Virus record (IMG/VR): IMGVR_UViG_2585427787_000002
DNA: 13,125 nucleotides
Origin: a virus
Taxonomy: Duplodnaviria; Heunggongvirae; Uroviricota; Caudoviricetes
Strand: one strand, 5' to 3'
Below are positions 3,529-3,588 of the stretch, piece by piece (the first letter of the stretch is position 1; each line of letters opens with the position of its first letter). A program made the position numbers and the translations under genes. The notes beneath the pieces were generated by a model. That model made no database searches. It was not told where the DNA came from and was given only the letters and a program-made list of their open reading frames with translations.

Positions 3529-3548
3529 TCCTCACGCTCCATAAATGA

Positions 3549-3568
3549 CAAAACCGCCCGCAGGCGGT
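3549..3568 (-). other. Stem-loop in the I-J intergenic spacer
   Basis: AAACCGCC (3549-3556) / GGCGGTTT (3561-3568), 8-bp stem with 4-nt loop; on the minus strand it is followed by TTTTGTCATTT and then the J ribosome-binding site (GGAGCGTGAGGA) and ATG at 3528. Confidence 0.35.
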
Positions 3569-3588
3569 TTCACATAAAACATTTTGCA

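Follow-up and report, generated by a model that had tools for sequence, protein, structure and literature searches.

The 60-nt spacer between the tail genes I and J of this virus contains a stem-loop that is real, ordinary and already known: the sequence is that of phage lambda itself, and the records of related phages label the element a terminator. The structure exists, is selectively conserved, is oriented with the late transcript and follows a design that is found again upstream of J in several tail lineages unrelated to one another. As to its function, we give about an even chance to the reading that the hairpin is of the Rho-independent terminator type and would terminate RNA polymerase that lacks the Q antiterminator, being read through by Q-modified polymerase. 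The spacer matters little as a discovery, since its sequence has formed part of the lambda reference genome from 1982 onwards and a terminator is annotated in relatives both close and distant; what is useful is the correction that I and J of lambda do not abut.

The I-J spacer and its hairpin

In the window, that is, the whole stretch of 13,125 nt that was analysed, all late genes are located on the minus strand. Gene I (3589..4236, minus strand), which encodes a tail-tip assembly protein of 215 aa, was delineated from the list of open reading frames, from the matching phage records, where the product is tail assembly protein I, and from the identity profile against lambda. It terminates with a TGA codon at 3591..3589 and is followed by the 60-nt intergenic spacer (3588..3529, minus strand), which corresponds to lambda 15445-15504. 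Gene J, the host-specificity tail-tip protein, starts with the ATG at 3528..3526 and is represented by an ORF of 898 aa (832..3528, minus strand) with the same start peptide as lambda J. The sense strand of the spacer reads UGCAAAAUGUUUUAUGUG-AAACCGCC-UGCG-GGCGGUUU-UGUCAUUUAU-GGAG-CGUGAGGA, followed by AUG. All on the minus strand, the 5' arm of the hairpin, AAACCGCC, occupies positions 3570..3563, the loop TGCG (UGCG in the RNA) 3562..3559, and the 3' arm, GGCGGTTT in the DNA and GGCGGUUU in the RNA, 3558..3551; directly 3' of the stem lies a U-rich tail (3550..3541; DNA TGTCATTTAT, RNA UGUCAUUUAU), and the GGAG at 3540..3537, 8 nt before the ATG and conserved in the alignment of junctions, is the likely Shine-Dalgarno sequence of J. 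An earlier, sequence-only reading of this DNA had described a 60-nt gap with an 8-bp stem around TGCG and a U-rich tract after it on the minus strand, and its coordinates and sequence are correct in every detail. Its account of tightly packed neighbours holds as well: under the usual annotations, K and I overlap by 103 nt, as in lambda, T and H by 29 nt, and H and M by 1 nt.

The stem is a perfect helix of 8 bp, five of them G-C; it starts 18 nt past the stop codon of I, on the same strand as I, and the hairpin lies 22 nt upstream of the J start codon. The folding energy of the hairpin RNA is -16.1 kcal/mol (z = -4.1 versus dinucleotide shuffles). The loop is closed by a C-G pair, so that on the sense strand it is a tetraloop of the C(UNCG)G type; UNCG loops are a class of unusually stable RNA tetraloops. 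On the antisense strand, the loops of lambda-type hairpins would read CGCA or CGGA, and this side of the hairpin of the window is followed only by UUUCACAU, with no U-run. The class of the loop and the strand of the U-run thus point to a role of the lambda-type hairpin as RNA in the late transcript.

The anatomy is that of an intrinsic terminator in most respects: the stem is G+C-rich and within the usual range of ~5-14 bp, the loop is within the range of 3-8 nt, and the element is intergenic and co-oriented with the upstream gene. The U-tract, UUUUGUCAUUUAU, consists of four consecutive U's and then an interrupted U-rich stretch; three of the U's are paired in the stem, with the A-run of the 5' arm. 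A simple consensus terminator scan of the window listed the other three late-strand hairpins (see below) and not this one. Because the U-tract is interrupted and the scan does not list the element, the I-J hairpin may be a weak terminator. A scan for a J promoter found no sigma-70-like site in the spacer, and a search against Rfam yielded no match at the gathering threshold in the whole window and only chance-level matches (E of at least 1) at the spacer.

By itself, a perfect 8-bp hairpin in 13 kb is statistically unremarkable: the window contains one such hairpin with a loop of 3-8 nt, against 1.5 +/- 1.5 expected from first-order Markov simulations. The case for a genuine feature between I and J is therefore built on placement and conservation, not on the length of the stem.

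Identity with lambda and spread of the junction

The spacer had been flagged on the premise that I and J abut in lambda, and this premise is wrong: in both lambda records (NC_001416 and J02459), I occupies 14773..15444 and J 15505..18903. Alignment of the spacer with lambda 15445-15504 shows identity at all 60 positions, and the sliding 100-nt identity window at 3656-3557 has a value of 1.00. Given the gap between I and J in lambda, the spacer is therefore no local anomaly or recombination scar. The lambda GenBank records carry no annotation of the I-J hairpin.

The junction is widespread. A 241-nt junction probe matched 8624 places in 4280 of the 5426 complete E. coli genomes, and 110 phage records at 80-100% identity. 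Among the 87 loci that were assigned to the lambda-type J query (a set that includes ES18), 85 possess the spacer. The notion that the spacer is a peculiarity of this phage does not survive the alignment of lambdoid junctions, which shows it to be essentially universal at lambda-type I-J junctions; the sequence-only reading itself had named universality of the spacer in the lambda family, combined with no transcript discontinuity, as evidence against its interpretation, and the first half of this is what was found. In a scan for the exact motif with one genome per species, genuine copies of the lambda-type hairpin were detected only in Escherichia and Shigella. Of the 35 exact matches to the hairpin motif (L253-L287), about 25 come from contigs with low coverage in assemblies of unrelated organisms (Neobacillus, Kitasatospora, Pseudomonas, Shewanella, Bradyrhizobium and others), and several of these contigs are 48.4-48.5 kb long; the motif-bearing contigs of unrelated organisms are almost certainly lambda control or marker DNA that contaminates the assemblies.

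Identity between the window and lambda is 83-99%, mostly at least 90%, from ~5528 to ~4030 (L, K and the start of I), 52-73% over positions 4029-3757 (~270 nt in the middle of I), and then 95-100% without interruption from ~3756, within I, through the spacer to ~1032 in J, ~2.5 kb into that gene. The last ~170 nt of I and the spacer are parts of one conserved block. The mosaic breaks relative to lambda are accordingly found inside I (~4030 and ~3757) and near the C-terminus of J. Phages Ayreon and vB_EcoS-569R4 are collinear with the window across the junction, at ~97% identity. A recombination scar bordering the J module, which had also been proposed, finds no support in these profiles: there is no identity break at the spacer with respect to lambda, Ayreon or 569R4, and the nearest breaks are those inside I. 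Across loci, the identity to the window on the I side and that on the J side are uncorrelated (r = 0.02). In 24 of the 83 lambda-type loci, there is no long BLAST match on the I side despite a match on the J side.

The J gene appears split, the lambda-like C-terminal domain being encoded in a different frame by an ORF of 248 aa (113..859, minus strand). The break lies near 916..832: at ~916, similarity to J of the mEp460/Ayreon type gives way to similarity to the C-terminal domain of the lambda type (97% over the first 157 nt of the lambda-type part and 91.5% over 355 nt), and the frame shifts with it, lambda 18097 being codon position 1 and window position 916 codon position 3. The split reflects either an out-of-frame recombinant joint, which would make J a pseudogene of a decaying prophage, or an indel that arose in sequencing. 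In the close relative vB_EcoS-569R4, J is also annotated in two pieces, which are split elsewhere. The longest ORF for the tape measure protein H (5922..9017, minus strand) encodes 1031 aa from a TTG codon, or ~1021 aa from the start annotated in relatives, compared to 853 aa in lambda, which implies a tail longer than that of lambda. The head module is of the fused protease-scaffold-capsid type found in mEp460 and Ayreon, unlike that of lambda.

Conservation of the lambda-type hairpin

Conservation was assessed on 67 unique lambda-type junctions of 540 nt, derived from 80 IMG/VR loci together with lambda and Ayreon. Of the 16 stem columns, just 2 are variable, compared to 91 of the 159 third-codon columns of the flanking I and J sequences (45 of 79 in I and 46 of 80 in J; Fisher p = 0.0009) and 17 of the 40 remaining spacer columns (p = 0.06). 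One of the two variable stem columns reflects a single A deletion and the other a C->U change, the only stem substitution among the 67 junctions, which leaves a U.G pair in the sense RNA. Position 2 of the loop is G or C at a ratio of ~50:50, such that nearly all copies have a C-G-closed UGCG or UCCG. The GGAG at spacer positions 49-52 is conserved, and the GAGG that is nearer to J varies between G and C (~50:50 at position 58) in the 67 junctions. Covariation within the lambda-type clade is uninformative, with 7 of the 8 pairs invariant; one locus, L013, has a variant hairpin, GAGCCGCC-UUUUG-GGCGGCUU, with a compensatory replacement of an A-U by a G-C pair in the stem. Taken together, these patterns are a clear indication that the I-J stem evolves under purifying selection, with changes that keep the pairing.

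The same alignment bears on two readings that place the function of the spacer in translation. That the spacer encodes a small protein, either through a 16-codon sense mini-ORF starting with the ATG at spacer position 7 or through an antisense ORF (3502..3729, plus strand), has a negligible probability: both ORFs are present in the window, but the ATG of the mini-ORF is ACG in 18 of the 67 unique junctions, and the single-base spacer deletions in 5 of the 67 would break either frame. Start-codon and single-base-deletion variants effectively refute a coding role, the antisense ORF being broken by 1-nt indels in relatives. Translational control, in which the Shine-Dalgarno sequence of J would be hidden in an extended lower helix formed by spacer positions 7-16 and 46-55, is very improbable. 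This helix is included in the minimum free energy structure of the 81-nt region and is 97.6% pairable in the clade; however, G.U pairs make up five of the ten, the fold as a whole reaches a z-score of only -2.3, and at the sole informative pair (columns 11/57) each of the four combinations is seen, C.A among them, with a result no better than that of the shuffle control. A lower helix that masks the Shine-Dalgarno sequence was rejected on the lack of covariation in the lambda-type clade.

Four hairpins along the late operon

Only four late-strand gaps in the window exceed ~40 nt, and each of these contains a sense-strand hairpin with a U-run or a U-rich tail. Apart from the one between I and J, the hairpins are GCCCCGG-UUAU-CCGGGGC with U6 in the V-G gap, after V (9706..9723), GGCCC-GUAA-GGGCU with U7 after the capsid/protease-scaffold gene (12128..12141), and GGGCGCCA-GAAA-UGGCGCC(U) with U6 between the end of J and the start of lom (75..94), all on the minus strand. 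These three were detected by the terminator scan and by folding, and in each case Ayreon has an annotated terminator at the homologous place. In all, the homologous 13 kb of Ayreon carry four annotated terminators, after the capsid/protease gene, V, I and J, and the window has all four hairpins. The U-tract of the I-J hairpin is the weakest and least canonical of the four, the other three having U6-U7. With the four hairpins as borders, the late operon falls into blocks for the head, the tail shaft, the tail tip, J and lom.

Accessory genes between I and the hairpin

In some relatives, the space between I and the hairpin is occupied by morons. In HK97, the genes located there are annotated as 'moron product' (gp22) and 'reverse moron product' (gp23), and HK022 has gp22 and gp23 (srb), labelled morons, in the same slot. 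Insertions in the I-J slot measure 318-749 nt in five IMG/VR loci of the HK97 type, two of them apparently the genomes of HK97 and HK022, and ~475 nt in the lambda-type locus L013; altogether, morons between I and the hairpin were found in HK97, HK022, L013, L102, L134 and L158. The hairpin is J-proximal in every insertion-bearing locus, and in the window the slot is empty, as it is in lambda. The site thus shows the defining features of a moron slot, with accessory genes present in some relatives and absent in others, a syntenic core, and a terminator-type hairpin at the downstream end. The hairpin is the J-proximal border of this accessory-gene slot, immediately upstream of the ribosome-binding site of J.

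The insertion in L013 (IMG/VR UViG_2695420808_000007) is AT-rich, encodes a protein of 112 aa with a lipoprotein-like signal (MNKTILFCTIIALTGC...) and is followed by the variant hairpin described above. A Pfam search with the inserted ORF detected no family, and it looks like an undescribed moron.

An empty slot that ends in a hairpin resembles a deletion product, and relatives do carry morons with the hairpin at the J-proximal end; both facts would fit a functionless remnant, be it a terminator left behind by a moron since lost or a recombination joint bordering the J module. We consider such an origin improbable because of the conservation data: the stem varies far less than neutral-like sites do (p = 0.0009, as above), and L013 as well as the Stx-type clade described below show compensatory changes. 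The uninterrupted homology with lambda, Ayreon and 569R4 at the spacer also argues against it.

Hairpins upstream of J in other tail lineages

The HK97/HK022/mEpX1-type junctions, with an I-J spacer of 51-56 nt and a J N-terminus that is ~33% identical, contain GCCACC-UUCG-GGUGGC, then U6-U8 and then AUGGGCGCAAUAUG in 82 of the 84 loci. Phage phiES15 has GGCCGCC-UCCG-GGCGGC followed by U6. In the Stx/EHEC-prophage type, where J is ~76% identical and the I-J spacer measures 234-851 nt, 39 of the 81 loci contain GGCACCC-UCCG-GGGUGCC, with a four-base loop, 41-65 nt before J; within this clade, there is a compensatory exchange between C-G and U-A (17 versus 17 loci), as well as a U.G variant in 3 loci. 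Counted across the different versions of the hairpin, 94% of the cells are paired and three pairs changed on both sides, a count that is partly circular in that a hairpin finder served to pick the segments; the non-circular support is the compensatory changes within clades together with the near-universal presence of the hairpin.

The Stx/EHEC-type spacers (L083 942..1200, which is phage 2851, and L169-L248) fall into lengths of 234-260, ~342 or ~851 nt. The short version begins with AAAAAAAUCCCGCAG...CUGCGGGA, which resembles an opposite-strand terminator, and has a sense terminator at its end, before J; this convergent layout could leave room for a small transcription unit or an sRNA. A search of the long Stx-type spacer against Rfam produced no match.

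Virulent T1-like phages (ISF002, IsaakIselin and KLPN1) have an I-J gap of 77-87 nt with a canonical terminator on the sense strand. In contrast to the lambda-type spacer, in which the scan finds no such promoter, the terminator of the T1-like gap has a strong U8 tract and is followed by a TGnTATAAT-like -10 element. The extended -10-like elements in these gaps are TGTATAAT, TGCTATAAT and TGTACAAT (L288 885..975, L289 887..987 and L290 881..981). Judging from this arrangement, J probably heads its own transcription unit in the virulent T1-like phages. No hairpin was found at I/J in ES18 and a Mannheimia phage, both with 9-nt gaps, or in a Burkholderia phage in which I and J overlap; the hairpin is therefore not essential for the expression of tail genes.

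These comparisons bear directly on the idea of a lytic attenuator, that is, that part of late transcription halts at the hairpin despite Q and lowers the level of J mRNA relative to the upstream tail genes. The strong terminator and the -10-like element in the same gap of the T1-like relatives suggest that I/J is a transcription-unit boundary in some lineages. However, Q antitermination is known to be highly processive, the U-tract of the lambda-type hairpin is weak, and tail formation needs no hairpin in the phages whose I and J overlap or lie 9 nt apart, so we hold attenuation of this kind to be a poor candidate.

Proposed role of the hairpin

An attenuator or an element of RNA stability or processing had been suggested from the sequence. 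The structural core of this suggestion stands, the hairpin being real, located on the late-mRNA strand, of the appropriate anatomy and annotated as a terminator by the curators of related genomes; the reason for which it was flagged does not.

The reading that we favour, with the even chance stated at the outset, takes the hairpin as a putative terminator for polymerase that has not been modified by Q. Such polymerase could have initiated at moron promoters or be engaged in stray transcription of the repressed prophage, and would be stopped by the hairpin, which would insulate J and the genes downstream of it. Q-modified polymerase reads through terminators over the whole lambda late operon. 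During lytic growth, Q-modified polymerase coming from pR' would pass the I-J hairpin, leaving it as a stable structure in the long late mRNA.

Whether this stable structure is itself the function is the question raised by the main rival reading, in which the hairpin is an mRNA stability or processing element with no useful termination. It would block 3'->5' exonucleases and protect M-L-K-I after an endonucleolytic cut of the 26-kb late mRNA, or else act as a protective 5' hairpin of the J message. A stable hairpin with a UNCG tetraloop on the sense strand is consistent with such a role, as is the conservation of the stem next to a variable U-tail and variable flanks. Moreover, by established knowledge, Q-modified polymerase should ignore terminators, and therefore any role in the lytic phase would have to be exerted after transcription. 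Against this, the HK97-type and T1-like counterparts have perfect U6-U8 tracts, which are needed for termination and not for blocking an exonuclease. The present data do not separate a role in stability from one in termination; we rate the former as possible, if rather doubtful.

In a broader proposal, in which the hairpin is more than a passive terminator, hairpin, U-run and ribosome-binding site of J would form a selected, lineage-spanning 'boundary cassette' that sets the dosage of J through differential mRNA decay or through termination despite Q, or that serves as a landing pad on which accessory genes can be swapped without disturbing J expression. We deem it unlikely.

A search of the accessible literature found no 3'-end or termination data for this site and no account of transcript ends or terminators within the late operon of lambda, and the I-J junction goes unmentioned in papers on EHEC prophage sRNAs, helper-embedded satellites and lambdoid mosaicism. 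Nor did the search find experimental evidence on the role of the four intra-operon hairpins in a Q-antiterminated late operon, for which the candidate roles are insulation of the silent prophage, tuning of mRNA decay, or both. The broader interest of the I-J hairpin lies in its recurrence, under purifying selection, across temperate and virulent siphophages.

Comparison with known phages and terminators

Compared to lambda, the I-J region of the window shows no difference in the spacer and 96-100% identity in the flanking I C-terminus and J N-terminus, whereas the rest of the window is a mEp460/Ayreon-like mosaic that differs from lambda in the longer tape measure, the other head module, the divergent middle of I and the split J. 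The record of phage Ayreon (MF807953) annotates a 'terminator' at 14895-14934, in the homologous place and with the homologous hairpin, the loop of which is UCCG as opposed to UGCG in the window; this annotation is computational, and the record cites no experiment.

In HK97 (NC_002167), a 'terminator putative' is annotated at 15107-15129, directly before J at 15141, and the record of mEpX1 labels the same site a rho-independent terminator. The hairpin of HK97, HK022 and mEpX1 is like that of the window in its location directly upstream of the J ribosome-binding site, its orientation, its G+C stem, its UNCG loop and its U-run. It is unlike the lambda-type hairpin in the sequence of the stem (GCCACC/GGUGGC) and in the perfect U6-U8 tract; the likeness is one of position and design rather than of demonstrated homology.

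Finally, compared to intrinsic terminators in general, the lambda-type element departs from the norm in its U-tract, which breaks after four U's, and termination at this site is putative. With the intrinsic terminators of E. coli and its phages, it shares the G+C-rich stem, the tetraloop of the UNCG class, the U-rich 3' tail, and an intergenic location co-oriented with the operon.
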